This document shows, in pieces, positions 2,747 to 57,576 of a stretch of 64,000 nucleotides of DNA. Made by a program: the position numbers and the translations under genes. The notes under the pieces are model-generated. The model was not told where the DNA came from and searched no databases. It worked only from the letters and a program-made list of their open reading frames with translations. The stretch is from Candidatus Heimdallarchaeum aukensis (GTDB lineage Archaea; Asgardarchaeota; Heimdallarchaeia; Heimdallarchaeales; Heimdallarchaeaceae): contig CP084166.1 of NCBI GenBank assembly GCA_021513695.1, positions 2,368,001-2,432,000 of the forward strand, given 5' to 3'. Each line of letters starts with the position of its first letter. The stretch's first letter is position 1.

Positions 2747-5293
2747 GTGAAATGTCCCGATTGTAGTAAAACCTTAACGATTGAAGAAAAAAGTCACACA
2801 TTTACTTTTCGTTGTCAATTTTGTGGATACTACTCAAAAATTGTTGGTGCTAAAAATGTTGAAGAAGCTTATAAGAAGACTGTGGAGAGGGCTATAGCTC
2901 AAAACAATATAATCCAAATATCAAAAAAAGAATCAGAACAACTAGTTAAAAGATTAACTCTTCAAGAGAAAATTAATCTGATTAAAAAAGGGAATGGTGA
3001 TCCTTCTAATCTCCCAAATCCCTTAGTTAAATTGTTAAGACATCCTGACTTAGAACCAGTTTACTATTTATTCTTGGAGCAAAAGTCTCCAGCTTTAGCT
3101 AAAGATTCCCTTTTTCTTCCATCTGAATTAAGTTCCTTTCTTAAGAAAAAGGGTTTTGTTCAATTATATGAATTTCAAAAACAATCGTTCAAAAAGATAA
3201 CAGAAGGAAAAAATGTAGTTATTGTAGCCCCAACTGGAACAGGTAAAACCGAGGCTTTCCTTTTTGCTATATTAACAGAAATTTGGGAATCTCATCCTCA
3301 TCCTCTATTACGAAATGGTCCTTATGCAATCTTTATCTATCCAAATAAAGCTTTAGCTAGAGATCAACAAAAGAAGATAAGCGAATATAGTTCAAAATTG
3401 GGAATAACCTGTGAAATTTTTGATGGCGATACTTCACAATCCAAAAGAAAAAAGATTTTGGAAAATCCTCCTGATATTTTAATAACAAATCCTGATATGC
3501 TACACTATCATATGCGAAAACCTAGTTTTAGGAGTCTGCTTTATCCGGTAAAGTTTGTAGTTATAGATGAAGTTCATGTGGCCGTAGGAGCATTTGGAAC
3601 AAATCTTTATTTTATAATTAGGCGATTAAGTCGATTGACAAAAAATAAATTACAATTTATTGCTGTTTCTGCCACAATAGGTAATGCCGTTGAGTTTACT
3701 TCTAAATTATTTAACAGCCCTTCTATGGATATAGTAGAAGTAACAGATGCACGAAAAGCACCTACTCATCTTATGATTGTGTATCCATATGGAACAAGCC
3801 AGTATACACTTACAGGAGACATTACTCGATTACTTGCTTCATCTGGTAGAAAAATCTTAGTTTTCCAGAATAGTCATAAAAATGCAGAAATTATTAATCT
3901 CCTTCTCAGCCAGAGAATGAAAATTGACAGCGCAGTGCATAGAGCGGGTCTCACAAAGAAATATAGAGCACAGGTAGAAAAAAGATTTAGAGATAATGAA
4001 CTAGATGTGTTAGTTTCAACGCCTACTTTAGAATTAGGAATAGATATTGGCAGTGTAGATTCTGTTGTATCTTCAATTGTTGACTTTACAAGGTTTACTC
4101 AACGATTAGGTAGAGCAGGAAGAAAAGGACAAGAATCAATAGGTATTCTTATTCTTAGGGACAATGACCCGATCTCTACCTATTATGCTTTTTACCCTGA
4201 AGACTATTTTGAAGACATAAGAAAAGGATTTATTGAACCTAAAAATGAACTCATTGCCTACTACCAAATATTATCCGCTGTGATGGATAAACCTCTAAAA
4301 GAAAATGAATTTCAAGAGTTTAAACACATTATTTTGAATCTTGTAAATGATGGTTTAGTTAAATTAGCACCAAAAGGAGAATTTCAAATAGCTGATTATT
4401 CAAAGGTTAGAAAAGTTTTGTCAGTATTTAACTTAAGAGGAATCGGTGATACTATCGTAATTGAAGATATCAATGGCAAAGAACTAGGTAGTCGTTCAAT
4501 GCCAATGGCTGCAAGAGAGTTACATCCGGGGGCAATATATTTACTAGGCGGAAAATATTATCGCTCTCTGTCCTTTCAGTATGATCCGAGATTAGGTCGT
4601 GGAAGAGTTAAAGTTCAAAATATTCCGCCGCTTAATAAAAAAACTACTGCTTTACGTTTTGCAATGCCTGAGATTATTAAAATTCATGAATTAAAGAAAA
4701 TTACTGGAACAGAAGCAATTTACTGTGATCTACGAATAACAGAAAATGTAATTGGTTATTCACTTTCTGATATCTTTACTGATGAGAATGTTGAAAACAT
4801 CCCGTTAAAAGAACCTATTCAGTATTCTTTTGTAACTAAAGGATTTATGTTTGTGATGCCAAAACCTCAAAAAATCTTCAGAAATTACCCCGATAAGCAT
4901 GAAGATGAACTAGCCACTGGCACATTTCACGCAATTGAACATGTTTTAATCGAATCAAGCGAAATGATAACTGGTGGAGGAAGTAATGAAATAGGAGGTA
5001 TTTCAATGGGACATTCTGGAGCAATTTTTGTGTATGATGGAGCTAAAGGAGGTTCTGGTCTTTCAAAGCTACTTTTTGACCGATTAGATGAAGCGCTTGA
5101 TCGTTCATTAAATATCCTTAAGAAATGTACATGTAAAACAATGGACGGTTGTCCTAGATGTACCTATAGCTATCAATGTGGAAACAATAATTTCCCACTG
5201 AACAAGTATGGTGCTATTGAATCTCTGACACTTGTTAAAAAATCTAAATTAAAAATCATTGAAGATGTGAGCGGTTATAATCCTCTGATCTAG
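2747..5293 (+). CDS. Superfamily-2 DEAD/DEAH helicase with C-terminal DUF1998/MZB cysteine cluster (COG1205, YprA/MrfA-like) and an extra N-terminal zinc ribbon
   Basis: GTG start. N-terminal CPDC..17..CQFCG ribbon. Motif I APTGTGKTEAF, motif II VIDEVH, motif III SAT, motif VI QRLGRAGRKG. C-terminal CTCKTMDGCPRCTYSYQCGNNN. Confidence 0.85.
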   Translation: MKCPDCSKTLTIEEKSHTFTFRCQFCGYYSKIVGAKNVEEAYKKTVERAIAQNNIIQISKKESEQLVKRLTLQEKINLIKKGNGDPSNLPNPLVKLLRHPDLEPVYYLFLEQKSPALAKDSLFLPSELSSFLKKKGFVQLYEFQKQSFKKITEGKNVVIVAPTGTGKTEAFLFAILTEIWESHPHPLLRNGPYAIFIYPNKALARDQQKKISEYSSKLGITCEIFDGDTSQSKRKKILENPPDILITNPDMLHYHMRKPSFRSLLYPVKFVVIDEVHVAVGAFGTNLYFIIRRLSRLTKNKLQFIAVSATIGNAVEFTSKLFNSPSMDIVEVTDARKAPTHLMIVYPYGTSQYTLTGDITRLLASSGRKILVFQNSHKNAEIINLLLSQRMKIDSAVHRAGLTKKYRAQVEKRFRDNELDVLVSTPTLELGIDIGSVDSVVSSIVDFTRFTQRLGRAGRKGQESIGILILRDNDPISTYYAFYPEDYFEDIRKGFIEPKNELIAYYQILSAVMDKPLKENEFQEFKHIILNLVNDGLVKLAPKGEFQIADYSKVRKVLSVFNLRGIGDTIVIEDINGKELGSRSMPMAARELHPGAIYLLGGKYYRSLSFQYDPRLGRGRVKVQNIPPLNKKTTALRFAMPEIIKIHELKKITGTEAIYCDLRITENVIGYSLSDIFTDENVENIPLKEPIQYSFVTKGFMFVMPKPQKIFRNYPDKHEDELATGTFHAIEHVLIESSEMITGGGSNEIGGISMGHSGAIFVYDGAKGGSGLSKLLFDRLDEALDRSLNILKKCTCKTMDGCPRCTYSYQCGNNNFPLNKYGAIESLTLVKKSKLKIIEDVSGYNPLI

Positions 5294-5376
5294 TTGTAAT
5301 ACCCTAGTAATGTTCACATCATGTGCCCATGTTATATCATTTTTTTAGGTAAACCAAGAATTGGTTCTTGATCAAC

Positions 5377-5787
5377 ATGCTATCGTCATCAAATCTTAAT
5401 GTGAAAGAGATGCTTAATATTGCTCTCGACTGTATTTTCCCAACTAGTGAATCAATAGAACCTGAAATATTAAAAGAAATCACAAAATTCTTAGAACAAC
5501 AAGAACCTCAAGCTCCAACAGAAGATGCTGAAATTGTTAGAGGTGAAATAAGGAAAGCATTAATCCACTTTAAAAATCGTCCTTATTTGTATAATTCTAG
5601 AAAGAAAATTGAGAGTCTATTACTTAAGAACGAAAATTGGAAAAAATTCATTATTGCTCCTCATTCATTTAAAGATGAACTTATTGAAGCAGGGTTATCA
5701 TCAAAAGAGATAGCATTGTTGAAATCATCTCTTGAGAATGCAGAAAACACATTAAACCTCCTAAAACATATTCCCCAACCTCACTAA
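5377..5787 (+). CDS. Hypothetical protein
   Basis: ORF track 5368..5787 begins at a TTG; the first ATG is at 5377 (MLSSSNLN). Helical-looking sequence with no motif recognised. Confidence 0.4.
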   Translation: MLSSSNLNVKEMLNIALDCIFPTSESIEPEILKEITKFLEQQEPQAPTEDAEIVRGEIRKALIHFKNRPYLYNSRKKIESLLLKNENWKKFIIAPHSFKDELIEAGLSSKEIALLKSSLENAENTLNLLKHIPQPH

Positions 5788-5912
5788 TCTTTTTGCATTC
5801 TCCTTTTTTTAAATCCTATTCTTTTTTCTTGTTAATTTCATTCTCCTTTTTACTCTCAATTACATGAAAAAAAAAGATAATGTTTTAAATTATTGATTTT
5901 TTCTTAATTTTA

Positions 5913-7433
5913 ATGGCAGATTTAAGACTTAAATACGGTACATCGCTAAATAAACAAAAAATGATGGAAATAACTATTGTAAGTATTATTGCACTATTTC
6001 TCTTTGTTTTGTCATTATATGTTAAAGATGCTTTTTGTTCTTGGTTCAATATGCAGAAGGGTGCAGGTTTTTACTGGTATTATGACCCCTCTAACCCTGA
6101 AGCTGTTTGGTACATAGAAGGATACGTTGATGCCTCATATTATTATCAACCTTATTTGTATGCATTTAGATATCAGAATTGGAATCCTTACTTGGGTGGA
6201 GAAGGACCATTGAATGGTTATGCTTATGGCCCCCTTTTTATATATGGTCTTTATTTTATTTCTCTTTTTGTTTCTATTGCAAATCCTTCTCTAACGAATT
6301 TTCAAGTGGTAATTGAATCAGTAAAATGGACACATATTGTTTTTGACTCATTATCGGTTGTTATGCTTTTTTTTATTGTTATCAATTTAGAAATAATGAA
6401 GTCAAAGAAATTTTCTAAATATTTAACTGGTGTTATAGCATCTGTTGTATATATTTTCATGCCCTTTAATCTGCTATACATTGATGCTTTAAGTCTTAAT
6501 ATTCCTCAAATGACTTTCTTTGTTCTTCTTGGAACATTTTTATTTAGAAAAGAAAAATATATTTTATCTTCATTTGCCATGACTTTGGGTTGGTTATCGA
6601 AACAGATGCCACTATTTATTGTTGTTCCTTGGTTTATAATACTCTGGAAAAAAGATGAAGACTTGAAAAAAGCACTTGTAGATTTCTTATTCCCTTTCTT
6701 TATTTTCACTTTGATATTCTCAATTCCTTGGTTAATATTGTCACCGGGAGGATATTTATTTAGAATATTTGGACCTGGAAAACCATTATCTATCGTTTCT
6801 TTGTCTTCCAAATATAATGGATATACTGTCACCTTGGCACATAGTTTTCTGAAATTAGGAAGCGAAACTTTAGCAAACATATATTTGTTTCTAAATAAGT
6901 ATATGATACCTTTTTTTGTTTTTTATATACTTACGTTATTAATTTGCTATTTTAATGCTTTAGATATATTTAATGACGAAAAACAATTTTACATTTATAA
7001 CACAGTAGTAATTCTTGTGTCTCATATATTCATTTCTAGAGGAATTTACAAATATTATGATGCATTTTTTTCTCCTTTCTTCATTCTTTTTCTTGTTTTA
7101 CTACTTTGGTCTTATTTTGACTTATGTAGATTCAACAATAGAACTTTATTGTATTCTTATTTTTTCGTTTCAATAATTTCCAGTTCAATTATTTTGTACT
7201 ATATTAATTGGGTAATAATCATCAAATCTAGATTCCTTCATCCTCTCTACTTGTTATTAATTTTTATTTTCATTTCTAGCTTTTTAGAAAGTAATTTTTA
7301 CTCGAGTCTAACCAAGTTTGAAAGCTACAGAATGATAATATTAGATATCAAAAAGATTTACTCTGATATAAAAAACTCTCTTCGAATACACAAAAAGGAA
7401 AAAGATCCGAAAATAAATCCGAATTTAGAATAA
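5913..7433 (+). CDS. Polytopic membrane protein, GT-C-type glycosyltransferase-like (DUF2029/PIG-M-like)
   Basis: 506 aa with more than 10 predicted hydrophobic helices. The first loop YVDASYYYQPYLYAFRYQNWNPYLGG..YAYGPLF resembles the D..Y...G.sPY...Y.YpPL loop of GT-C mannosyltransferase-like families. Confidence 0.45.
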   Translation: MADLRLKYGTSLNKQKMMEITIVSIIALFLFVLSLYVKDAFCSWFNMQKGAGFYWYYDPSNPEAVWYIEGYVDASYYYQPYLYAFRYQNWNPYLGGEGPLNGYAYGPLFIYGLYFISLFVSIANPSLTNFQVVIESVKWTHIVFDSLSVVMLFFIVINLEIMKSKKFSKYLTGVIASVVYIFMPFNLLYIDALSLNIPQMTFFVLLGTFLFRKEKYILSSFAMTLGWLSKQMPLFIVVPWFIILWKKDEDLKKALVDFLFPFFIFTLIFSIPWLILSPGGYLFRIFGPGKPLSIVSLSSKYNGYTVTLAHSFLKLGSETLANIYLFLNKYMIPFFVFYILTLLICYFNALDIFNDEKQFYIYNTVVILVSHIFISRGIYKYYDAFFSPFFILFLVLLLWSYFDLCRFNNRTLLYSYFFVSIISSSIILYYINWVIIIKSRFLHPLYLLLIFIFISSFLESNFYSSLTKFESYRMIILDIKKIYSDIKNSLRIHKKEKDPKINPNLE

Positions 7434-7577: not shown

Positions 7578-8138
7578 ATGAAGGAAACAAAAAATCGTGC
7601 TGTTTCTCCAGTTATAGGAACAATGCTAATGATTAGTTTAGTTATTGCGGCGAGTGTATTTGTGGCAATTTTTATTGGCAATATTAGAGTTCCTGCAATT
7701 GAAATTGGAGAAGAGACTCCCTCTCTTTATTCAGTAAACATTGATGTTATTTATTTTAACATAACTGATACTAATTCTAATGGACTAAATGATACACTTG
7801 TAGTAAAGTTTAATCTGGATTTAGATTCCCCAACAATTTATGTACAAGATATTGACATTTTGTTGCCTACAGGAAACTTACTTGATGATATAGTTCCATG
7901 GGTTATTATTGATTCAAATAGCTCTTGGAATTCAGACTTCTATGGATATTCTGTTTTGAATGGTAGTTTGAATGCTACATTTACTGTACAATGTTATGAC
8001 CTATCTAAGTCTGTAGGTGAAATTGCTCCAGGATATTCATTTTATTATTTAATTAAATATAACTATGTTTCTGTCAAAGGAAACCAATTGACTCTTATTT
8101 CTGATGTTTATCAATCAGAGTTAATAGAGACAAAATAA
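7578..8138 (+). CDS. Archaeal type IV pilin-like protein (class III signal peptide, DUF1628-type N-terminus)
   Basis: N-terminus MKETKNRAVSPVIGTMLMISLVIAASVFVAIF matches the archaeal prepilin motif (R/K-G/A-x-SPVIG followed by a hydrophobic helix). The rest is rich in N-x-S/T sequons. Confidence 0.75.
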   Translation: MKETKNRAVSPVIGTMLMISLVIAASVFVAIFIGNIRVPAIEIGEETPSLYSVNIDVIYFNITDTNSNGLNDTLVVKFNLDLDSPTIYVQDIDILLPTGNLLDDIVPWVIIDSNSSWNSDFYGYSVLNGSLNATFTVQCYDLSKSVGEIAPGYSFYYLIKYNYVSVKGNQLTLISDVYQSELIETK

Positions 8139-8214
8139 TATACAACATAATAATACATTTTTTTCTTTTTTCAAAACATTTTTTTAGATATTTGTGCTTA
8201 CTAATTTGAACATA

Positions 8215-8949
8215 ATGTCCCTTGAACCAAAACGAGCTTATAAAATAGTTTTAATTGGAGACCCAGAAGTAGGAAAAACTTCCATAAGAAGAAGATATAT
8301 GGGAAAAACGTTTAAAGGAGAATATTTGAAAACAATAGGTGCTGACTTTGCAGCACAAAAAGTAGAAATTGAAGATGAGGTCGTTTTATTAACAATATGG
8401 GATCTAGCTGGGCAAACTATCTTTCATGGAATGCGTTCTTCCTTTTACCAAGGATGTAAGTCTGCGTTAGTTGTTTTTGATGTAACAAATGTTGAAAGTT
8501 TGAACAATGTAGAAAAATGGACAGAAGAAGCTGTAACCTATGCAAAAAGTTCATTACAAGAGATTTATTTAATAGGCAATAAAATAGATTTGAAGAAAGA
8601 GAGAGTAGTTACAAAAGAACAAATAGACAAAAAAGTAAAACAATTGGAATCTTTAGTTAACTTTCCTATTAGAGTTTATGAAACATCTGCTCTTACAGGA
8701 GAAAATATCCAATCTTTATTTATGGATCTAAGTAGACGATTAATTATTAGTGATAACGTTAAATTTGAAGAAGAAATAGAAGCTAAACGTGCTCATGATG
8801 TTAAGAAAGAAAAAAGAAAAGAACCAGGTAAAGATGTTGATTATAAATCTAAAGATGACTTGAAAGAGATAATAAACCATATCGAGCTTCATGTTGAGAA
8901 AATAAATGACTTTATCAAATTATTGAAAAAACGATTAGATAAACTGTAA
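8215..8949 (+). CDS. Rab/Ras-like small GTPase with about 70-aa charged/coiled-coil C-terminal extension
   Basis: G1 GDPEVGKT, switch I YLKTIGADF, G3 WDLAGQ, G4 GNKIDL, G5 ETSAL. The ORF track starts at GTG 8194; ATG 8215 (MSLEPKRAYKIVLIG) fits the family N-terminus. No C-terminal Cys (no CAAX). Confidence 0.85.
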   Translation: MSLEPKRAYKIVLIGDPEVGKTSIRRRYMGKTFKGEYLKTIGADFAAQKVEIEDEVVLLTIWDLAGQTIFHGMRSSFYQGCKSALVVFDVTNVESLNNVEKWTEEAVTYAKSSLQEIYLIGNKIDLKKERVVTKEQIDKKVKQLESLVNFPIRVYETSALTGENIQSLFMDLSRRLIISDNVKFEEEIEAKRAHDVKKEKRKEPGKDVDYKSKDDLKEIINHIELHVEKINDFIKLLKKRLDKL

Positions 8950-50614: not shown

Positions 50615-50995
50615 TTAAAAATCATAAACCCAATTTGTTTCGGGAATGTACAGCAAATTTAAGATAAGTGTCCATACTGCTATAGTTACAATAAAAAACT
50701 GAAAGATTGCAGAAGTATAAAATGATTTAGTTTTAAGTCCAGTATTTTTGTTTCTATAAATTAAAAACCAAACTGAAGATGTTAATAGAAATACTCCAAG
50801 TAATGTAAGTCCTGCTGGCCAGTTTCTAAAATTAGTTACACCAAAGATTATTCCTGTAACTATTCCCACTAAAACTTTTGAATAGTACATTTTATTTGTT
50901 AAAGGCATTTCTTTAATCTTTTCTAACCAGTTGACGGGATTCAAATTGTTTTTAACTTTATTCTTAATTTTGTTCATATCAATATTCAAACTCAT
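50615..50995 (-). CDS. Small 3-TM membrane protein; weak resemblance to the EMC6/Rab5ip family (speculative)
   Basis: YSKVLVGIVTGIIFGVTNF..LLGVFLLTSSVWFLIY..IAVWTLILNLLY loosely parallels the remembered human EMC6 ([35 protein letters not shown]). The start is uncertain; internal Met codons lie at nt 50977 and 50908. Confidence 0.5.
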   Translation of the reverse strand: MSLNIDMNKIKNKVKNNLNPVNWLEKIKEMPLTNKMYYSKVLVGIVTGIIFGVTNFRNWPAGLTLLGVFLLTSSVWFLIYRNKNTGLKTKSFYTSAIFQFFIVTIAVWTLILNLLYIPETNWVYDF

Positions 50996-51011
50996 TCACC
51001 CAGGTGTTAAT

Positions 51012-53027
51012 ATGAAATCATCATTAACTTCATTAGATATCAATTGTCTTGTTGAGGAACTGAGACCCGAAATTATCGGCAGTTGGCTCAATAACGTCTA
51101 TAACATTGGAGAGAAATTACTTATTTTAAAGTTTCGAAAGTCTAGCAAAATTAATTTTGAGCTTATTATTGAACTAGGAAAAAGGTTTCATATAACAAAA
51201 TATGCCCGAAGTAAACCACCTGCTCCGAACAACAAGGTAGCAATGATGCGTAAACATATAAAAGGACTTCCTGTTGATGATTTTTATCAAATTGGTTTAG
51301 ATAGAATTATAGTATTTGAGATAGCTTACAAAGATTCACATTATAAGCTAGTTATTGAGTTGTTTGGAGAGGGGAATTACATTCTAGTAGATCCTGCAAA
51401 CAGGATATTGGTTGCTCAAACATATAGAAAAATGCGAGATAGAGATATTCATCCCGGAAAAGAGTTTTTCTTACCTCCACAACAAGAAAAAGATATTCTT
51501 TCAATTAGTAAGGACGATATTCTGGAATCTCTATCAAGTAAAGAAGAAAAAATCATCCCACTTCTCAATAAACTTTTAGGGTTAGGCCCTAAATATTCAA
51601 AAAATATTCTGGATAAGGCAAAAATCAATAACAAGGTAACAACTGAGTTAACCACCAACGAAAAAGAGTCACTCATAAAAGAAATACTAGAATTAAAGAA
51701 AATAATAGAAGAAAAAAGATATTCTCCTGTTGAGTATTTTGATGGTGAAGAAGTTATTGATATATCGCCTATTCCAATAGAGAAGTATAATGATTTAGAA
51801 AAAAAAGAACTAGATTCATTTAATGATGCTCTAGATGACTTTTTCACTGAAAATGAAGAGACACCAGAGTTCGAGAAAACAGAAGGAAAAATAAAGAGTA
51901 CTCAGTCAAAACATGAAAAAATTCTCCAGAATCAAATTGAACATAAGAAAAAACTAGAATTACAAGAGGAGTTAGAAAGAAAAAAAGGTGATTTACTATA
52001 TGCTCACTTCTCATTAGTTGATGAATTGCTAAACACCATTATAAAAGCGAGGAAAAATAATGTTCCTTGGTCTGAAATAGAGAAAAAAATGGATGAAGCA
52101 AAAAAGAAGAATATTCCTGCAGCATTAATCTTACACAAGATCAACCCTAAAACAAAAGAAATATGGGTAAAATTGGAAGATTTAGAAACTGGAGAAAATG
52201 AAATAATTGTACTAGATTTCACTCTTTCTGTTGCCGATAATGCGAATAAATTTTATGAAAAAAGTAAGAAGGCAAGGAGAAAAATACCAGGGGCCATCCA
52301 AGCAATAGAACGAACAAAACAACAAATTGAGAAAATGAAAGAGAAAGGAGAGCAACTTCTTACTGAAAAAGAAACTAGAAAAATGGTTGAAAAACGTCCA
52401 AAACGATGGTTCGAAAAATTTCACTGGTTTTTATGCGATGACACTGTAATCGTTGGAGGAAAAGATGCTAAATCCAATGAAAGATTACTTAAAACTTATC
52501 TGGAAGACGATGATCTCTTTTTCCATGCAGATGTGCATGGAGCCCCTTATGTTATAGCTAAAGACGGTAGGAAAAAACTCTCTGATGAATGTGTTAAAGA
52601 AATAGCAGCTTTTGCTCTATCGTTCTCAAGTTTGTGGAAAGCAAAAAAATTAGTGGGCGATGTCTATTACGTAAATCCTGATCAAGTGAGCCTAAGTGCT
52701 CCTTCTGGACAATATCTGGCTAAAGGAAGTGTAATGATATATGGAGAAAAGAATTATGTTAAGAATGTGGAAGTCAATCATGTGTTGGGATTAATCATTC
52801 ATGAAAACTACGCTCAGGTAATTGGAGGACCTATGAGAAGTGTTGACAATAAAACTGACATGATAATAAGATTAAAACCTGGCGAAATTAGTAAAGGAAA
52901 AATAGCAAAAATAATAAAGCAAAAGTTTATTGAGATGTGTCCAGAAGAAGATAAGTACAAAGTTGAAGCTCTTGATATTAATGAAATAATGGACTTCATT
53001 CCTGGAGATTCAGAGATAATAGAATAA
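51012..53027 (+). CDS. NFACT-family ribosome-quality-control protein (NEMF/Rqc2/RqcH homologue; FbpA N-terminus + DUF814)
   Basis: N-terminus MKSSLTSLDINCLVEELRPEIIGSWLNNVY (NFACT-N). Central coiled coil. The NFACT-R/DUF814 segment carries DDLFFHADVHGAPYVIAK. The track start 50931 adds a hydrophobic extension antisense to the neighbouring gene. Confidence 0.8.
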   Translation: MKSSLTSLDINCLVEELRPEIIGSWLNNVYNIGEKLLILKFRKSSKINFELIIELGKRFHITKYARSKPPAPNNKVAMMRKHIKGLPVDDFYQIGLDRIIVFEIAYKDSHYKLVIELFGEGNYILVDPANRILVAQTYRKMRDRDIHPGKEFFLPPQQEKDILSISKDDILESLSSKEEKIIPLLNKLLGLGPKYSKNILDKAKINNKVTTELTTNEKESLIKEILELKKIIEEKRYSPVEYFDGEEVIDISPIPIEKYNDLEKKELDSFNDALDDFFTENEETPEFEKTEGKIKSTQSKHEKILQNQIEHKKKLELQEELERKKGDLLYAHFSLVDELLNTIIKARKNNVPWSEIEKKMDEAKKKNIPAALILHKINPKTKEIWVKLEDLETGENEIIVLDFTLSVADNANKFYEKSKKARRKIPGAIQAIERTKQQIEKMKEKGEQLLTEKETRKMVEKRPKRWFEKFHWFLCDDTVIVGGKDAKSNERLLKTYLEDDDLFFHADVHGAPYVIAKDGRKKLSDECVKEIAAFALSFSSLWKAKKLVGDVYYVNPDQVSLSAPSGQYLAKGSVMIYGEKNYVKNVEVNHVLGLIIHENYAQVIGGPMRSVDNKTDMIIRLKPGEISKGKIAKIIKQKFIEMCPEEDKYKVEALDINEIMDFIPGDSEIIE

Positions 53028-53257: not shown

Positions 53258-54538
53258 TTGGTGAGTCCTATCACTCAAAAGAAGAAATGCCCTGTATGTG
53301 GATATGTGACAAAAGATCATCGTTTAATGAATTGTCCTAATTGTGGAACAGAGCTTATTTTAGATGTTGTTCTTCCAAGCCTAAATGTTCAGGATTCTTT
53401 TTTTGATATACAAGGAAACGAGTTAAAAGAAACACATAATCTAGGGAACAATAGTAAAAAAATTGACCAACCAGCTTGGCAAATAATGGATCAGGAAGGT
53501 GGAGCGACACAATATCCACTATTTGTAAAAAAGGAAGTAAATCTGTATCCTGTAATTCAAATACCCAGAGTTTCATTTGATTTTTTTAAGCAATATAGAG
53601 TTATATATCTAATTCTAATTTCAATACTCTCAATGTTACAATCAGCTTCTTTTTTGTTCCTAATATCGAGTTTATATGTCATGTTAAATCGAATTAAGTC
53701 GTCTAGCGCTGTTTCTATTATTCCATTTTTACTAGTAGGATTAATCTGTTATTCACTATTTTCTTATTTACAATTTAAATTTATATTTCATATAAAGCAA
53801 AAAAACTTCCCAGAAAGAATATTAGAAAAAGATTCTTCCTTTACTAGTTTTGTTCTAATTAATGCTTTACAATTGTTATTTTCCGCTATTCTCTTAGGAG
53901 TAATTTTCTTATTAATAGCAAAATCGGGAGCAAATATTGAGAAACCAATTATTTCTCAACTTATGTTGGGATTAGGGCTTCTACTAATTGTTCCATTGTT
54001 ACTAGTCTTTAGAACAGCAAAAATTTTAAGCTTGATGAGGAAAACAGGGATCTTTCAAAACATGTACGATGCCATTCAATTTTCAAAATTTTCATTAAGA
54101 AGGGGATACGGGATTCTCTTTGTAAGTATATTATTACCTATTTTCATAGTTACTCTTGGGGTCGGATCTATAACTACATGTTTATCTTCTCTTTTCAGAA
54201 TTTCTGGTTACACAGTGTCAGTATTGCATATTGTTACTACTGTATTTTTACTTATATTGGTGTCTGGATTATTCCTTATTTCAAATAATGAAGATGTTGA
54301 TATTTTGTCCATCTATGAATCATACTTGTTTGCTTTCTCCGTTCCACCTAAAATAACTTGGTTAAATAAAGAAACCAATATCGAAAGCTCGAAAGAAGAA
54401 AAACAAGAATTTGAAGATTTATTTAATCTAGACAATGTTGACTCTTTAGTTGAAGTAAAGTACTGCCCAGTTTGTTCAAGTAAATTACCTGATGATGTTG
54501 ACTATTGTGTGAGCTGTGGTCACCCTCTAAGAGAATGA
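53258..54538 (+). CDS. Polytopic membrane protein bracketed by N- and C-terminal zinc ribbons
   Basis: Non-ATG start (TTG 53258 or GTG 53261). CPVCGY..CPNCG at the N-terminus, CPVCSS..CVSCG at the C-terminus, about 8 TM helices between. Confidence 0.55.
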   Translation: MVSPITQKKKCPVCGYVTKDHRLMNCPNCGTELILDVVLPSLNVQDSFFDIQGNELKETHNLGNNSKKIDQPAWQIMDQEGGATQYPLFVKKEVNLYPVIQIPRVSFDFFKQYRVIYLILISILSMLQSASFLFLISSLYVMLNRIKSSSAVSIIPFLLVGLICYSLFSYLQFKFIFHIKQKNFPERILEKDSSFTSFVLINALQLLFSAILLGVIFLLIAKSGANIEKPIISQLMLGLGLLLIVPLLLVFRTAKILSLMRKTGIFQNMYDAIQFSKFSLRRGYGILFVSILLPIFIVTLGVGSITTCLSSLFRISGYTVSVLHIVTTVFLLILVSGLFLISNNEDVDILSIYESYLFAFSVPPKITWLNKETNIESSKEEKQEFEDLFNLDNVDSLVEVKYCPVCSSKLPDDVDYCVSCGHPLRE

Positions 54539-54567: not shown

Positions 54568-55305
54568 TCACTTGAATTTTTTTACGAGTTGTTTTAGAAT
54601 TGTTTGTATTGTTTCTATTTTTTCTTCTATTTTCTCCACTCTTTTAACAAGCTTATTGAATTCGTCAGCTGATACTTCTACTTCTCCAGAGACTGATTCC
54701 ATCATCGATTCTTTAATATCTATAATTCCAGGAGCAAGTTCTTTTTTCTTTGTTACTTTAACGTTATTTGCTTCGAGAAGTGTGTAAGCCAAGAAATCAA
54801 ACGTTTCTTGGATATTTTGTCCTGTTAATGCCGATGTTTCACTATAGTAGAAGTTTATTCCCGTTTCAGTCATTAGTCTCTGACAAAATTCTATAGCCAT
54901 TTTCTGTGATACTCTCCTATTTTCTGGAGGAAGATCGATCTTATTAGCTATTACAAAGTAAACTAGAATTCCAGAATTTGAACCTTCAATACTCTCTTCT
55001 AGCCATGTTCGTAGATTAGTCATTGTTTGTTGATCTTGGATATCAAATACCAACAAAGCAGCTATAGCTCCTTTATAAAAAGTTGACCTAACAGCTGAAT
55101 AGCTATCTTGTCCTGCAAGATCCCATATCTGAAAAGTGATGTCATTGTCTTCTACTTTTACTTTTTTTGAAGCAAAGTCAGCCCCAATTGTTTTAAGATA
55201 GTCTCCTGTAAATCCTTTTCCCATATATCTCTCTCTAATAGAGGTCTTTCCTACTGCTCCATCTCCAGCCAATACAATTTTAAAATTCCATTTTTTTCCT
55301 GTCAA
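54568..55305 (-). CDS. Rab/Ras-like small GTPase with coiled-coil C-terminal extension (paralogue of 8215..8949)
   Basis: TTG start preceded by GGTGA. G1 GDGAVGKT, switch I YLKTIGADF, G3 WDLAGQ, G4 ANKIDL, G5 ETSAL. No C-terminal Cys. Confidence 0.85.
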   Translation of the reverse strand: MTGKKWNFKIVLAGDGAVGKTSIRERYMGKGFTGDYLKTIGADFASKKVKVEDNDITFQIWDLAGQDSYSAVRSTFYKGAIAALLVFDIQDQQTMTNLRTWLEESIEGSNSGILVYFVIANKIDLPPENRRVSQKMAIEFCQRLMTETGINFYYSETSALTGQNIQETFDFLAYTLLEANNVKVTKKKELAPGIIDIKESMMESVSGEVEVSADEFNKLVKRVEKIEEKIETIQTILKQLVKKFK

Positions 55306-55309
55306 GATT

Positions 55310-55996
55310 TCACCCTTGTTGTTTGTATTTAGCTAATTCTTCTTCTAGCTCATCTATTCTTCTCTGAGCTTCAAGTAATCTCTTTTGGAATGTTTCTCCT
55401 ACTTCCTGCTGAGTTCTTTCAAAGTGTGCTTTTGCTTCTTCTAACTCTTTCCTCATTTTTTCTCTTTCCTCACGAGCTTTCTTTATTTCTTCACTCTCAC
55501 GAACTGTTTGAACAGCCTTTTTGAGCAATGTTTCCAAGTCATCTTTTGAAACATCAAAATTTGAGGAAGTAAGCATCTTTAGAGCGTTAAATTCATCAGC
55601 AGAGATTGTAGGTCTACTTTTCATTAGGTCTTCAACCTTCTCTTGTAGAGCTTTTTTCTCGATAAGTAGATCAGAAACCTGTGCTTTCAGTTGTCTATTT
55701 TCTTCACTTAATTGAGTAGAATTTTGTGTTTCAATATCAAGTGATCTTCTAAGATGTTCAATCTCATCAGAACTTTCTCCTAATTGCTTTATGTATCGAA
55801 CTAGCATAACTATATATTCACGCAAAAGAGGATGGATTAAATGCCAATATTGATGGATTTCTCGTTCAATATCAGATAATCTCGGATCTTTCATGTTTGG
55901 AGGGAGTTTTACAAAAACAGGGTTTTCAACATCAATTTGGGGATAATACTCTGGAATATAATTGTAGATTGTTTCTCCTTTATACTTTTTAAACAT
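55310..55996 (-). CDS. Coiled-coil protein co-transcribed with the GTPase
   Basis: 228 aa. The C-terminal two thirds are heptad-like and E/K/Q/L-rich. Its TGA stop lies inside the GGTGA preceding the GTPase TTG start, with a 4-nt spacer. Confidence 0.65.
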   Translation of the reverse strand: MFKKYKGETIYNYIPEYYPQIDVENPVFVKLPPNMKDPRLSDIEREIHQYWHLIHPLLREYIVMLVRYIKQLGESSDEIEHLRRSLDIETQNSTQLSEENRQLKAQVSDLLIEKKALQEKVEDLMKSRPTISADEFNALKMLTSSNFDVSKDDLETLLKKAVQTVRESEEIKKAREEREKMRKELEEAKAHFERTQQEVGETFQKRLLEAQRRIDELEEELAKYKQQG

Positions 55997-56160
55997 AGTT
56001 TAACCTCACTTTTTTAATCAATTATATGTATCAATTACATTTAATAAAAGTTTTATGTCAAAGGAAAAACTAATGAAAGTTAAATTGAGAATGTTTTTTA
56101 AAGTTAGTTAGTAATTCTAAGTAGGCCTAAATAATTTACAAATCTACGATTGTGAAAGAA

Positions 56161-57576
56161 ATGAGTGAAGAAAATAAAGAACAGTTTTTTGAGTTAGTGA
56201 AAGAGATAGATGAGATTGTTTTCCAACACATGAAAGATAAAGCTACATCAATAGAGTTTAAACAAGTCTTAAAAAAAGAAAAAAGTGATATTAAACCTAT
56301 TAATTCAATACTTGATGCAGAAAATGAGGAAACAGAGATATCATCAGTTATGGATAATATAGGTATTAATACAAAAAAGGCAAATATTCTTGAAGAAGAG
56401 CAGTTGTTATTAGAAGAAGCAGAGGAAAATAAAATATTTTTACAATTAAAGGACAAGTATCCTGACTATAATATCTATATAAAGCAGATATATTGTTCAA
56501 GTAGCTATCAAGAGGACAGAGTAATTCAGCTTTTACAAAAAGATCTAACCTCGCTCAAAGACATACGAATTAAGAAAAGTGAGATCAAGTTTTTTCCATT
56601 TTTATTGCATAATATTAAGTTTGTATTAGAAAAACCATTTTCTATTAGTTTTTACGATTATGAAATCCCTATCTATAGAACTTTACAAGAAGAAAAACTG
56701 CGTTTTTATCCAATAGGAGAATATCCTTTTGAAGAAAGAGAGAAAATTTTTGAAAATAAGTGGATTCCACTAATAAGTAGTTTGCAACACTCATTAATAA
56801 AATCAATTAATGATGGAAAGTTAGCTGAAAAGAGAGTAGAAAGAATAGATAAAAAAAATATTTCACCTGTTGATTTTAGTAAATTACAAGAATCAATCAG
56901 TGCTTCTATAGATAGTGCAAAGAAAGCTTTTTCAAATCCTAATAAAGAAAACACGTCTAATTTTGAAACATTTTGGCAGAATGAGAAACAGTTCAACAAT
57001 GCTATATTACAATTAAAAAAACAGTTAGTAAATATAGAGCATGAGTTAAAAGAAGAAGATGATAGGATAAAAGAAGAGTATCTAGAATTAAAGAAAAAAC
57101 AAGTAAAATTGAATAAAGAAGCAAAAATGTATAAGCAACTTGAAAATCAAGGAATAAAAATTGAACGAGAAAAAAAAGAAAAAGTTGCAAAGATGTTATC
57201 TGAATTTCAAAGCAAAAAAGAATCAGTTCAGAAAAAACTCTTTGAATTTAAGAAGAAAAAGAACTTGTTGGAGCAACTGACAGAGCTTATTAAAAATAAG
57301 AATATGACTGATTTTGAAAAGAACTTTAGAATGCTCTTCAAGAAAGATGTTGACAATGCATTAGAAGCAATTAAAACAAGCATCGAAGAGCAAGGATCTA
57401 ATATAAATTTAGTTGAAAGTAACCATCTTGAAAAAAATATTAGGTTACATGTTGTTTGGGTTCCAATATTCTTAATAACCTTCAAAGCATCACAAGAGGA
57501 ACGTAAAATAGATGGAAAAGCATTTTATTCAGATTTTGATAATAAAGTCTTCATTATTTCTCCTACCACAAGTTAG
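56161..57576 (+). CDS. Hypothetical protein with long central coiled coil
   Basis: Track ORF 56152 starts at GTG; the first ATG is at 56161 (MSEENKEQ). The K/E-rich central region is flanked by beta-like N- and C-terminal parts. The antisense ORFs are spurious. Confidence 0.55.
   Translation: MSEENKEQFFELVKEIDEIVFQHMKDKATSIEFKQVLKKEKSDIKPINSILDAENEETEISSVMDNIGINTKKANILEEEQLLLEEAEENKIFLQLKDKYPDYNIYIKQIYCSSSYQEDRVIQLLQKDLTSLKDIRIKKSEIKFFPFLLHNIKFVLEKPFSISFYDYEIPIYRTLQEEKLRFYPIGEYPFEEREKIFENKWIPLISSLQHSLIKSINDGKLAEKRVERIDKKNISPVDFSKLQESISASIDSAKKAFSNPNKENTSNFETFWQNEKQFNNAILQLKKQLVNIEHELKEEDDRIKEEYLELKKKQVKLNKEAKMYKQLENQGIKIEREKKEKVAKMLSEFQSKKESVQKKLFEFKKKKNLLEQLTELIKNKNMTDFEKNFRMLFKKDVDNALEAIKTSIEEQGSNINLVESNHLEKNIRLHVVWVPIFLITFKASQEERKIDGKAFYSDFDNKVFIISPTTS

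Follow-up and report, generated by a model that had tools for sequence, protein, structure and literature searches.

Rab-type small GTPases are well known from Asgard archaea, and those described, such as the Thorarchaeota Rab (7EZB) and its Lokiarchaeal counterparts, have the same G fold as the proteins considered here, a switch I of the form IGxDF, and no prenylatable cysteine. Asgard Rab-like proteins have been described as "significantly truncated" at the C-terminus (PMC10933270), and archaeal ones have been noted for the "absence of an extended C-terminal region" and for having no membrane signal, with localisation via protein-protein interaction being proposed (PMC4915359). By what means Asgard small GTPases, lacking lipid anchors, find their place in the cell is a recognised question (PMC4915359; PMC10933270). 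In a 64,000-nucleotide stretch of the genome of Candidatus Heimdallarchaeum aukensis (contig CP084166.1, positions 2,368,001 to 2,432,000; G+C content 32%), hereafter the window, two Rab-like genes, G1 and G2, belong to a subfamily that differs from these published examples—that is, its members have a conserved tail of 60-130 amino acids (aa) containing a coiled-coil helix, and those of the G2 and Helarchaeota type are accompanied by a fixed partner gene.

In eukaryotic Rabs (Ypt1/Rab1, Rab7, Rab8) the same logic is found, namely a G domain, a hypervariable disordered region (HVR), and a C-terminal localisation element, but G1 and G2 have no CC or CXC end, their RabF3 motif is divergent, and a coiled-coil helix takes the place of the geranylgeranyl groups. 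Arl13b, an N-terminally palmitoylated Arf-family protein with a C-terminal coiled-coil/Pro-rich extension, and Ran, whose C-terminal helix lies on its own G domain and which ends in DEDDDL, resemble G1 and G2 in that a small G domain is followed by a coiled coil/Pro-rich region or a helix with no C-terminal lipid; neither extension is homologous to the G1/G2 tail. A globular NTPase, a variable disordered linker (FtsZ-type), and a short conserved C-terminal element are likewise met in FtsZ, with its C-terminal linker and adaptor-anchored conserved peptide, and in MinD and FtsA, whose helix goes directly to lipid, but these folds are unrelated, and the G1/G2 helix, at four heptads, exceeds theirs in length and shows coiled-coil chemistry. 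The Rag/Gtr GTPases, together with Ragulator/EGO, use no lipid anchor, and their C-terminal dimerisation module docks on a membrane protein scaffold. By analogy, the tailed GTPase system would most plausibly work like Rag/Gtr-Ragulator, although Rag proteins have a roadblock domain where the tailed GTPases have one coiled-coil helix behind a disordered linker, and the two kinds of G domain belong to different subfamilies (Rag/Gtr GTPases are discussed in PMC10933270).

Both proteins are deposited, and public records label their family "Rab family GTPase" or "GTP-binding protein". A literature search for the tail of these GTPases or for the partner gave no description of either; papers on Asgard Arf proteins do not treat the family, and the H. 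aukensis genome paper does not discuss the tailed GTPases. Thus, the Asgard Rab-likes as such are well known, but the conserved tail and the fixed partner are undescribed in the literature found.

Rab-Like G Domains without a C-Terminal Cysteine

G1 (8215..8949, plus strand) is an open reading frame (ORF) of 244 aa plus stop that starts with ATG, and its product is 100% identical to a public protein of Ca. Heimdallarchaeum aukensis (P0001), which begins at 8215; the frame is open also from a GTG at 8194. G2 (54568..55305, minus strand; 245 aa plus stop) has a TTG start. An earlier sequence-only reading of the window had placed both ORFs here, leaving the strand of G2 unstated, and had called them paralogous; indeed, the two proteins are 40% identical over their full length including the tail (E 7e-56) and are members of two orthologue groups. 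A third GTPase copy was searched for within the window, and none was found. Both proteins match Pfam Ras (PF00071; E 1.8e-43 and 148.3 bits for G1, E 9.7e-40 and 136.2 bits for G2, cut-off 21.6) and the NCBIfam profile TIGR00231 (92.7 and 70.2 bits, respectively, cut-off 42.5).

The G domain of G1 occupies residues ~7-180 (8233..8754, plus strand), with the Ras match at residues 10-176. As read from the translations, the P-loop (motif G1) is GDPEVGKT in protein G1 and GDGAVGKT in protein G2, and the two have in common switch I YLKTIGADF, G3 DLAGQ, G4 NKID, and G5 ETSAL, in agreement with the complete G1-G5 motifs and the switch I reported before. Columns G15, G20, K21, T22, T40, D63, G66, Q67, N122, K123, D125, S158, and A159 are invariant in 51 sequences. 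Neither tail contains any Cys (no CC, CXC, or CAAX), in line with the sequence-only reading's statement on the C-terminus, and a Cys within the last 6 residues was seen in only one family member out of 121.

By sequence and by fold, the nearest relatives of G1 and G2 are Rabs, neither MglA nor Arf. The best 60 PDB sequence matches are all Rabs, the first being the Thorarchaeota Rab 7EZB (118.6 bits), with Ypt1 at 112.8 bits, and no MglA chain is among them. In the AlphaFold2 (AF2) model of G1, the mean predicted local distance difference test score (pLDDT) is 85.3, with block means mostly of 83-98 over the G domain and of 66 at switch I (residues 31-40). The best 50 Foldseek matches of this model are again all Rabs (TM-score 0.82-0.92, normalised to the target), and model and matches together support the predicted G fold, with its six-stranded sheet and five helices. 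BLAST bits against typed-in reference sequences fall from Rab1A/Rab7A (100-117) through Ran (82-96), RhoA (62-66), HRAS (51-58), and ARF1 (37-54) to MglA (20-37); the Pfam profiles Arf and Gtr1_RagA give 52-56 and only 29-33 bits, respectively, vs 136-148 for Ras. Furthermore, G1 and G2 have no Arf-type N-terminal extension, the G domain beginning at about residue 7, and their G3 is DLAGQ, not DVGGQ. In M. xanthus MglA, G3 is without the Asp and reads TxxGQ. Under the RabF1-RabF5 criteria of Pereira-Leal and Seabra, as used in PMC4915359, RabF1 (TIGADF), RabF2 ((I/Q)IWDLAGQ), RabF4 (FYQGC/FYKGA), and RabF5 (VVFDVT/LVFDIQ) are recognisable, whereas RabF3 has diverged (IFHGMR/SYSAVR vs RFRSIT).

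A rough neighbour-joining tree of the G domains, which used the same typed-in references, recovered the G1-type, G2-type, and Helarchaeota clades with support of 94, 84, and 98%, and joined all tailed proteins weakly (55%). It groups the tailed proteins with Rab/Ran/Ras/Rho, leaving Arf and MglA outside (87%), and it does not place them inside the eukaryotic Rabs, relative to which it does not fix their position. The phylogenetic placement proposed by the sequence-only reading has thus separated the family from Arf and MglA, but not positioned it against eukaryotic Rabs. That reading's preference for a Rab-like over an MglA/Rup-type assignment agrees with the PDB, Foldseek, and BLAST results, and a grouping with MglA/Rup proteins is not seen.

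A Variable Linker and a Conserved Terminal Helix

A homologue search gave 2,413 matches; nearly all of the 120 listed are 240-277 aa long, and their sources are Heimdallarchaeaceae, Kariarchaeaceae, Helarchaeota, and Thorarchaeota. The aligned homologues (~120) have one layout, in which a variable linker follows the G domain and a helix of ~30 aa closes the chain. The tail thus proves conserved as an architecture, contrary to the outcome that the sequence-only reading had set against its own proposal. The charged extensions of 60-70 aa described there are also real, the G1 and G2 tails measuring ~64 aa each, and the quoted tail ends, ..FIKLLKKRLDKL and ..ILKQLVKKFK, are right as given.

In G1, the linker comprises residues ~181-212 (8755..8850, plus strand), as delimited by pLDDT and orthologue identity. 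Its first part, to about residue 195, is modelled as a low-confidence continuation of helix a5 (pLDDT 62 at 181-190 and 49 at 191-200), and residues 197-211 are predicted to be disordered (pLDDT <50). Mean identity to G1 orthologues is 12% in the linker vs 70% in the G domain, and the variable stretch is acidic in the family alignment (mean net charge -4.4). The G2 linker, placed from the family alignment and linker statistics, covers residues ~181-212 as well (54670..54765, minus strand). Across the family, linker length ranges from 17 to 94 aa, with an acidic composition in Heimdall members and a Pro-rich one in Helarchaeota, where the linker reaches 45-94 residues, 18-31% of them proline, and the terminal helix is kept (e.g., LEGRIEDLEKRVKQIEKYLSQIGQILKDLIK). 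Because Helarchaeota retain the helix across this expanded linker, the length and composition of the linker are free, and the position and pattern of the helix fixed.

The G1 helix comprises residues 213-244 (8851..8946, plus strand); it is modelled as a helix at 213-243 (block mean pLDDT 71-91), has 100% hydrophobic a/d positions, and matches a hidden Markov model (HMM) of the family helix. That of G2, residues ~213-245 (54571..54669, minus strand), is supported by its heptad register and by a helix HMM match with an E value of 9.7e-10. When this HMM was run against 1,801 ORF segments, only tailed GTPases were matched, and the idea that the helix is a general tag was rejected on this result.

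Heptad Chemistry and Lipid-Binding Scores of the Helix

Judged by its residue pattern, the terminal helix carries a canonical four-heptad coiled-coil signature. Heptad positions a and d are 96-99% hydrophobic (L/I/V), vs 17% at the other positions, and among 109 tails there is not a single case of a charged residue at a/d. Position g is K/R in 44%, Glu is the leading residue at e, and acidic residues make up ~40% of the outward positions b/c; aromatics average 0.3 per 18-residue window. Across 150 tails, the median hydrophobic periodicity is 103.5 degrees (interquartile range 102-104). A heptad repeat has a periodicity of 102.9 degrees and a straight helix one of 100, so that the observed value, which matches the former and not the latter, favours a heptad coiled coil. 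One residue of the helix, E224 in G1 numbering, is at least 90% conserved across lineages. The tail had been called a basic amphipathic coiled coil, and "basic" is true of both H. aukensis copies, but not of the family: over the last 30 aa the family mean net charge is ~0, and ..DNLE, ..KKDD, or ..QEEE is the ending of many orthologues.

The amphipathicity analysis suggested by the sequence-only reading was run as a HeliQuest-type score, D, taken from the most favourable 18-residue window with a threshold of 1.34. D is high in both proteins (1.65 for G1 and 1.56 for G2) and exceeds the threshold in 31 of 38 G2-type and 23 of 67 G1-type proteins (G1-type median 1.16), and the family mean hydrophobic moment is also high (0.60). 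Among typed-in controls, however, the membrane anchors (Arf1 N-terminus, MinD, FtsA) score 1.1-1.3 and the GCN4 coiled coil 0.93, so that D discriminates poorly and lipid binding stays compatible with these scores. The chemistry of the heptad positions is the better guide, and it favours a coiled coil.

The G2 helix also matches, below threshold, the cytoplasmic helix at the N-terminus of MtrG (PF04210, E 3.5e-4, 20.9 bits vs a cut-off of 27; TIGR01149, E 3.4e-4, 20.5 bits vs 50.65). Homology to MtrG was set aside, both library matches being below cut-off and probably reflecting a helix/heptad resemblance.

A Coiled-Coil Gene Fixed Beside G2

Directly upstream of G2, with a gap of 4 nucleotides (nt), lies an ORF on the same strand for a protein of 228 aa (55310..55996, minus strand), modelled by AF2 as all-helical and hereafter called the partner. 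A Shine-Dalgarno-like GGGTGA (55310..55315, minus strand) overlaps the stop codon of the partner gene 4 nt before the TTG of G2, an arrangement from which we infer translational coupling of the two genes.

This linkage was scanned in Heimdall genomes, one per species, at 27 loci encoding the partner protein. A tailed G2-type GTPase lies downstream of the partner on the same strand in 27 of 27 loci, and the gap is 3-52 nt in 26 of them. At the exceptional locus (L032), the partner (2977-3675) and the GTPase (5819-6550) are separated by a 642-aa ORF (3743-5671, minus strand) whose C-terminus has, by eye, a zinc-ribbon/RuvC-like motif of the TnpB/IS605-OrfB type; the wide gap in this sole disrupted pair of the 27 is explained by the insertion of the TnpB-like ORF between partner and GTPase. 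Outside Heimdall, a distant partner homologue was found in Helarchaeota (E 2e-7), and a profile including it recovered a Helarchaeota branch of the partner. Here too, a tailed Ras-family GTPase (262-312 aa) stands directly behind the partner, at -4 to +23 nt, in all four loci examined. The genes flanking the Helarchaeota pair are unlike those in Heimdall, and since the linkage is kept amid different flanks, the pair itself is a conserved unit across two Asgard classes.

A third gene accompanies the pair in Heimdall. It encodes a zinc-ribbon polytopic membrane protein (53258..54538, plus strand; 426 aa; Pfam Zn_Ribbon_1, E 8.5e-8) with at least 6 transmembrane-like segments, and it is convergent to and immediately downstream of G2 in 26 of the 27 loci. 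Identity to the window copy is 23-32% in 25 loci and 71% in the congeneric H. endolithica.

The partner protein, searched in Pfam and NCBIfam, matched no family and gave only sub-threshold coiled-coil matches; those to Rab11-FIP3, DUF3629, HlyD, and SMC reflect coiled-coil composition and were not used. Its AF2 model contains long helices at 51-126 and 169-227, with a pLDDT of 69 and a predicted template modelling score (pTM) of 0.25, a low global confidence of the kind expected for a monomeric model of a coiled coil. The N-terminal ~80 residues are conserved (..PP.YD...H..IDA..R..W..LHP..D[F/Y]); the first ~37 are not confidently structured (mean pLDDT ~42-59), and the W..LHP element (51-56) starts the first long helix. 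When this N-terminal module was used as a profile to search 1.84 billion proteins exhaustively, only 28 representative clusters were found. The listed matches are 61-744 aa long, and the module stands at the N-terminus or within ~35 residues of it in all but one, a Listeria-Bacteroides repeat protein (P0219) matched at residues 400-424, probably spuriously. In the 12 members read, the module is followed by long helical sequence of the coiled-coil type. A motif, SADEFN, common to the G2 tail and the partner was considered and dropped, as it scores 23.5 bits and is unconserved in partner orthologues.

Proposed Docking by a Coiled-Coil Tail and Its Alternatives

The best explanation of the family includes the view that G1 and G2 form an Asgard-specific Rab-like subfamily, defined by a Rab-type G domain, a disordered hypervariable linker, and a four-heptad C-terminal helix. 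On balance, we think it somewhat probable that the tail helix is a coiled-coil module for protein docking or oligomerisation, carried on a linker like the Rab HVR, and that the partner of G2 is the coiled-coil protein encoded upstream. The terminal helix would then be the site of protein-protein docking or oligomerisation, and the linker would play the role of the eukaryotic Rab HVR, letting the switch domain reach out from the docking site. The G2 helix would dock on the upstream protein, pairing with it as a coiled coil, and the two would probably be co-translated; in Heimdallarchaeaceae, the zinc-ribbon protein, a candidate membrane receptor, may bring the G2-partner pair to the membrane. 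G1 would be the older duplicate, which kept the tail away from the partner gene and may homo-oligomerise or share the partner. The sequence-only reading had left open whether the tail targets a membrane or a partner, and of its two options partner targeting is favoured over membrane targeting because G2-type genes are linked to a coiled-coil gene. Established by the data are the Rab-like G domain, the layout of the tail and its conservation, the heptad pattern, and the linkage of the genes; the physical pairing, the choice of partner, and any membrane link are proposals. The tail layout parallels the Rab HVR plus anchor, and with the fixed gene partner the protein-docking idea can be attached to two or three defined components; if the docking reading is true, coiled-coil tethering of Rab-like switches is older than prenylation.

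A bolder version, which we consider quite unlikely, would make a Rab localisation system from before prenylation out of the tailed GTPase and the coiled-coil partner transcribed with it, joined in Heimdallarchaeaceae by the zinc-ribbon protein; in this system the HVR-like linker would tether the switch domain to a membrane-held coiled-coil scaffold, as in golgins, tethers, or Sec2. Such a system would functionally foreshadow the eukaryotic G domain/HVR/anchor arrangement and of the pairing of Rabs with coiled-coil effectors.

Several observations weigh against docking through the tail. The adjacency of the partner gene could equally reflect a role as guanine nucleotide exchange factor, GTPase-activating protein, or effector acting through the G domain. 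G1-type genes have no adjacent partner gene, and a long member of the partner family lies without an adjacent GTPase on a 2.2-kb contig, which is too short to inform. Sequence identity within the helix is ~18-20%, only the pattern being kept, which is weak evidence for one specific partner; coiled coils typically conserve the pattern with poor sequence identity. A mirror-tree partial correlation between tail and partner was uninformative, since it had 14 pairs, is dominated by the Heimdall/Helarchaeota split, and has no null distribution. Finally, the D of G1 and G2 equals or exceeds that of genuine membrane anchors.

This last point leads to direct binding of lipid, in which the terminal helix would be a membrane-targeting amphipathic helix of the MinD/FtsA kind that replaces prenylation, with the linker as a spacer and the basic residues binding anionic archaeal lipids. 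The position of the helix at the extreme C-terminus behind a flexible linker fits this, as do the hydrophobic moment, the D values of G1 and G2 above the anchor controls, the share of both orthologue groups above the threshold, and the membrane proteins encoded by neighbouring genes. Yet the score separates GCN4 poorly from anchors, and the helix, at 28-30 aa with a strict 3-4-3-4 seam and a periodicity of 103.5 degrees, has a hydrophobic stripe that on a straight helix would wind off the membrane face. Its net charge near zero, its acidic b/c positions, a basic flank confined to g with e rich in Glu, the scarcity of aromatics, and the many acidic ends among orthologues also fit lipid binding badly, and we regard direct membrane targeting as unlikely, though the D values and the C-terminal position of the helix keep it in play. 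A Ran-like intramolecular switch, with the helix packed on its own G domain and released in a nucleotide-dependent manner to expose a binding surface, appears very unlikely. Ran's C-terminal linker and helix work in just this way, Ran comes second after the Rabs in the BLAST ranking, and the AF2 confidence of the helix is fairly high; the disordered linker of 17-94 aa, however, is a poor fit with a defined docking geometry, the pTM of the G1 model is only 0.71, the Foldseek alignments, at 166-186 columns, are roughly as long as the G domain by itself, and the tail has no acidic DEDDDL-like end. Extremely improbable, in our view, is a short linear motif that docks on a helical bundle, such as a MIM-like helix for the MIT domain of Asgard ESCRT/Vps4. 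ESCRT-III C-termini, in which a flexible linker precedes a C-terminal helix with spaced Leu/Ile, are similar in layout to the GTPase tail, and the G2 helix part E-x-I-x-x-K-I-x-x-I is loosely like MIM1 spacing, but so loose a match is expected of any heptad helix, the helix is twice the length of a MIM, and there are no ESCRT genes in the neighbourhoods inspected.

Gene Neighbourhoods of G1 and G2

Upstream of G1 on the same strand lie a gene for a protein with a type IV pilin/archaellin-like N-terminus (7578..8138, plus strand), for which PF07790 (31.3 bits vs a cut-off of 25.2) and TIGR02537 (27.5 vs 20) bear out the earlier description as pilin-like, and a gene for a polytopic membrane protein of 506 aa with ~9 transmembrane-like segments (5913..7433, plus strand). 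The latter had been likened to a GT-C glycosyltransferase, a label that is without profile support: the protein and two orthologues have no Pfam or NCBIfam match, GT-C profiles included, even at E<=10. It is conserved beside the pilin-like gene in Heimdallarchaeaceae, where its relatives are 469-551 aa long.

Between the pilin-like gene and G1 (8158..8191, plus strand), an oligo-T tract (8158-8172) is followed by a TATA-like TTTTAGATAT (8182-8191), ~25-30 nt before the G1 ATG. From general archaeal signals, these could be read as a terminator and as a promoter of G1's own. Relatives have a recurring set of neighbours—helicase, a ~140-aa gene, the membrane protein, the pilin-like gene, an M20 peptidase, a ~400-aa gene, and SBP_bac_5—and in some of them G1 is separated from the pilin-like gene by that for the M20 peptidase; in another, the pilin-like gene and G1 are convergent. 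The idea that G1 shares an operon with the genes for the pilin-like and the membrane protein was rejected in view of the signals in the gap and of the differing gene order and orientation among relatives. The surroundings of G1, as read from these comparisons, are family-level synteny, not an operon, and the pilin-like neighbour is probably functionally uncoupled from G1; of the earlier description of G1 as sitting behind these two genes on the same strand, the adjacency stands and operonic coupling does not.

Relatives have an extra Ras-family gene near G1 (L001:1129-2043, L003:1230-2135, L012:9156-10061 (minus)), encoding 301-304 aa; its product is extended by ~125 aa at the N-terminus, its P-loop, G(E/D)xxxGKQS, is unusual, and it lacks a coiled-coil tail. 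It is absent from H. aukensis between 5787 and 5913, and tblastn found no remnant of it in the window.

Around G2, the zinc-ribbon gene adjoins a gene for an NFACT-family protein (50931-53027, plus strand), the Pfam domains having been seen on its orthologues at loci L005 and L007. In eukaryotes, this family is of the ribosome quality-control type. In relatives, the NFACT gene flanks the partner-G2 pair from the opposite side, indicating local rearrangement around a fixed trio. Divergent from the partner-G2 genes, the window has a Lys/Glu-rich, coiled-coil-looking protein of 474 aa with no Pfam match (56152-57576, plus strand), at the place of which relatives carry different small genes. A few genes upstream of the pair, relatives encode a protein of 120-125 aa resembling EMC6, subunit 6 of the ER membrane complex (a weak Pfam match; L005:2387-2764, L006:2387-2764, L009:353-715), and this gene adjoins one for a CDP-alcohol phosphatidyltransferase.

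The tailed GTPase gene of Helarchaeota is faced by a convergent gene (L010:4824-5537, L040:4619-5383, L041:4651-5436, L042:4885-5619; all minus) for a protein of 237-261 aa that is not homologous to the Heimdall zinc-ribbon protein. The four sequences are 35-41% identical to one another and consist of a helical N-terminal part, a linker rich in Pro, and a conserved C-terminal helix (..PLSEEE..KKLFEIKDLL..), a layout of linker and terminal helix like that of the GTPase tail.

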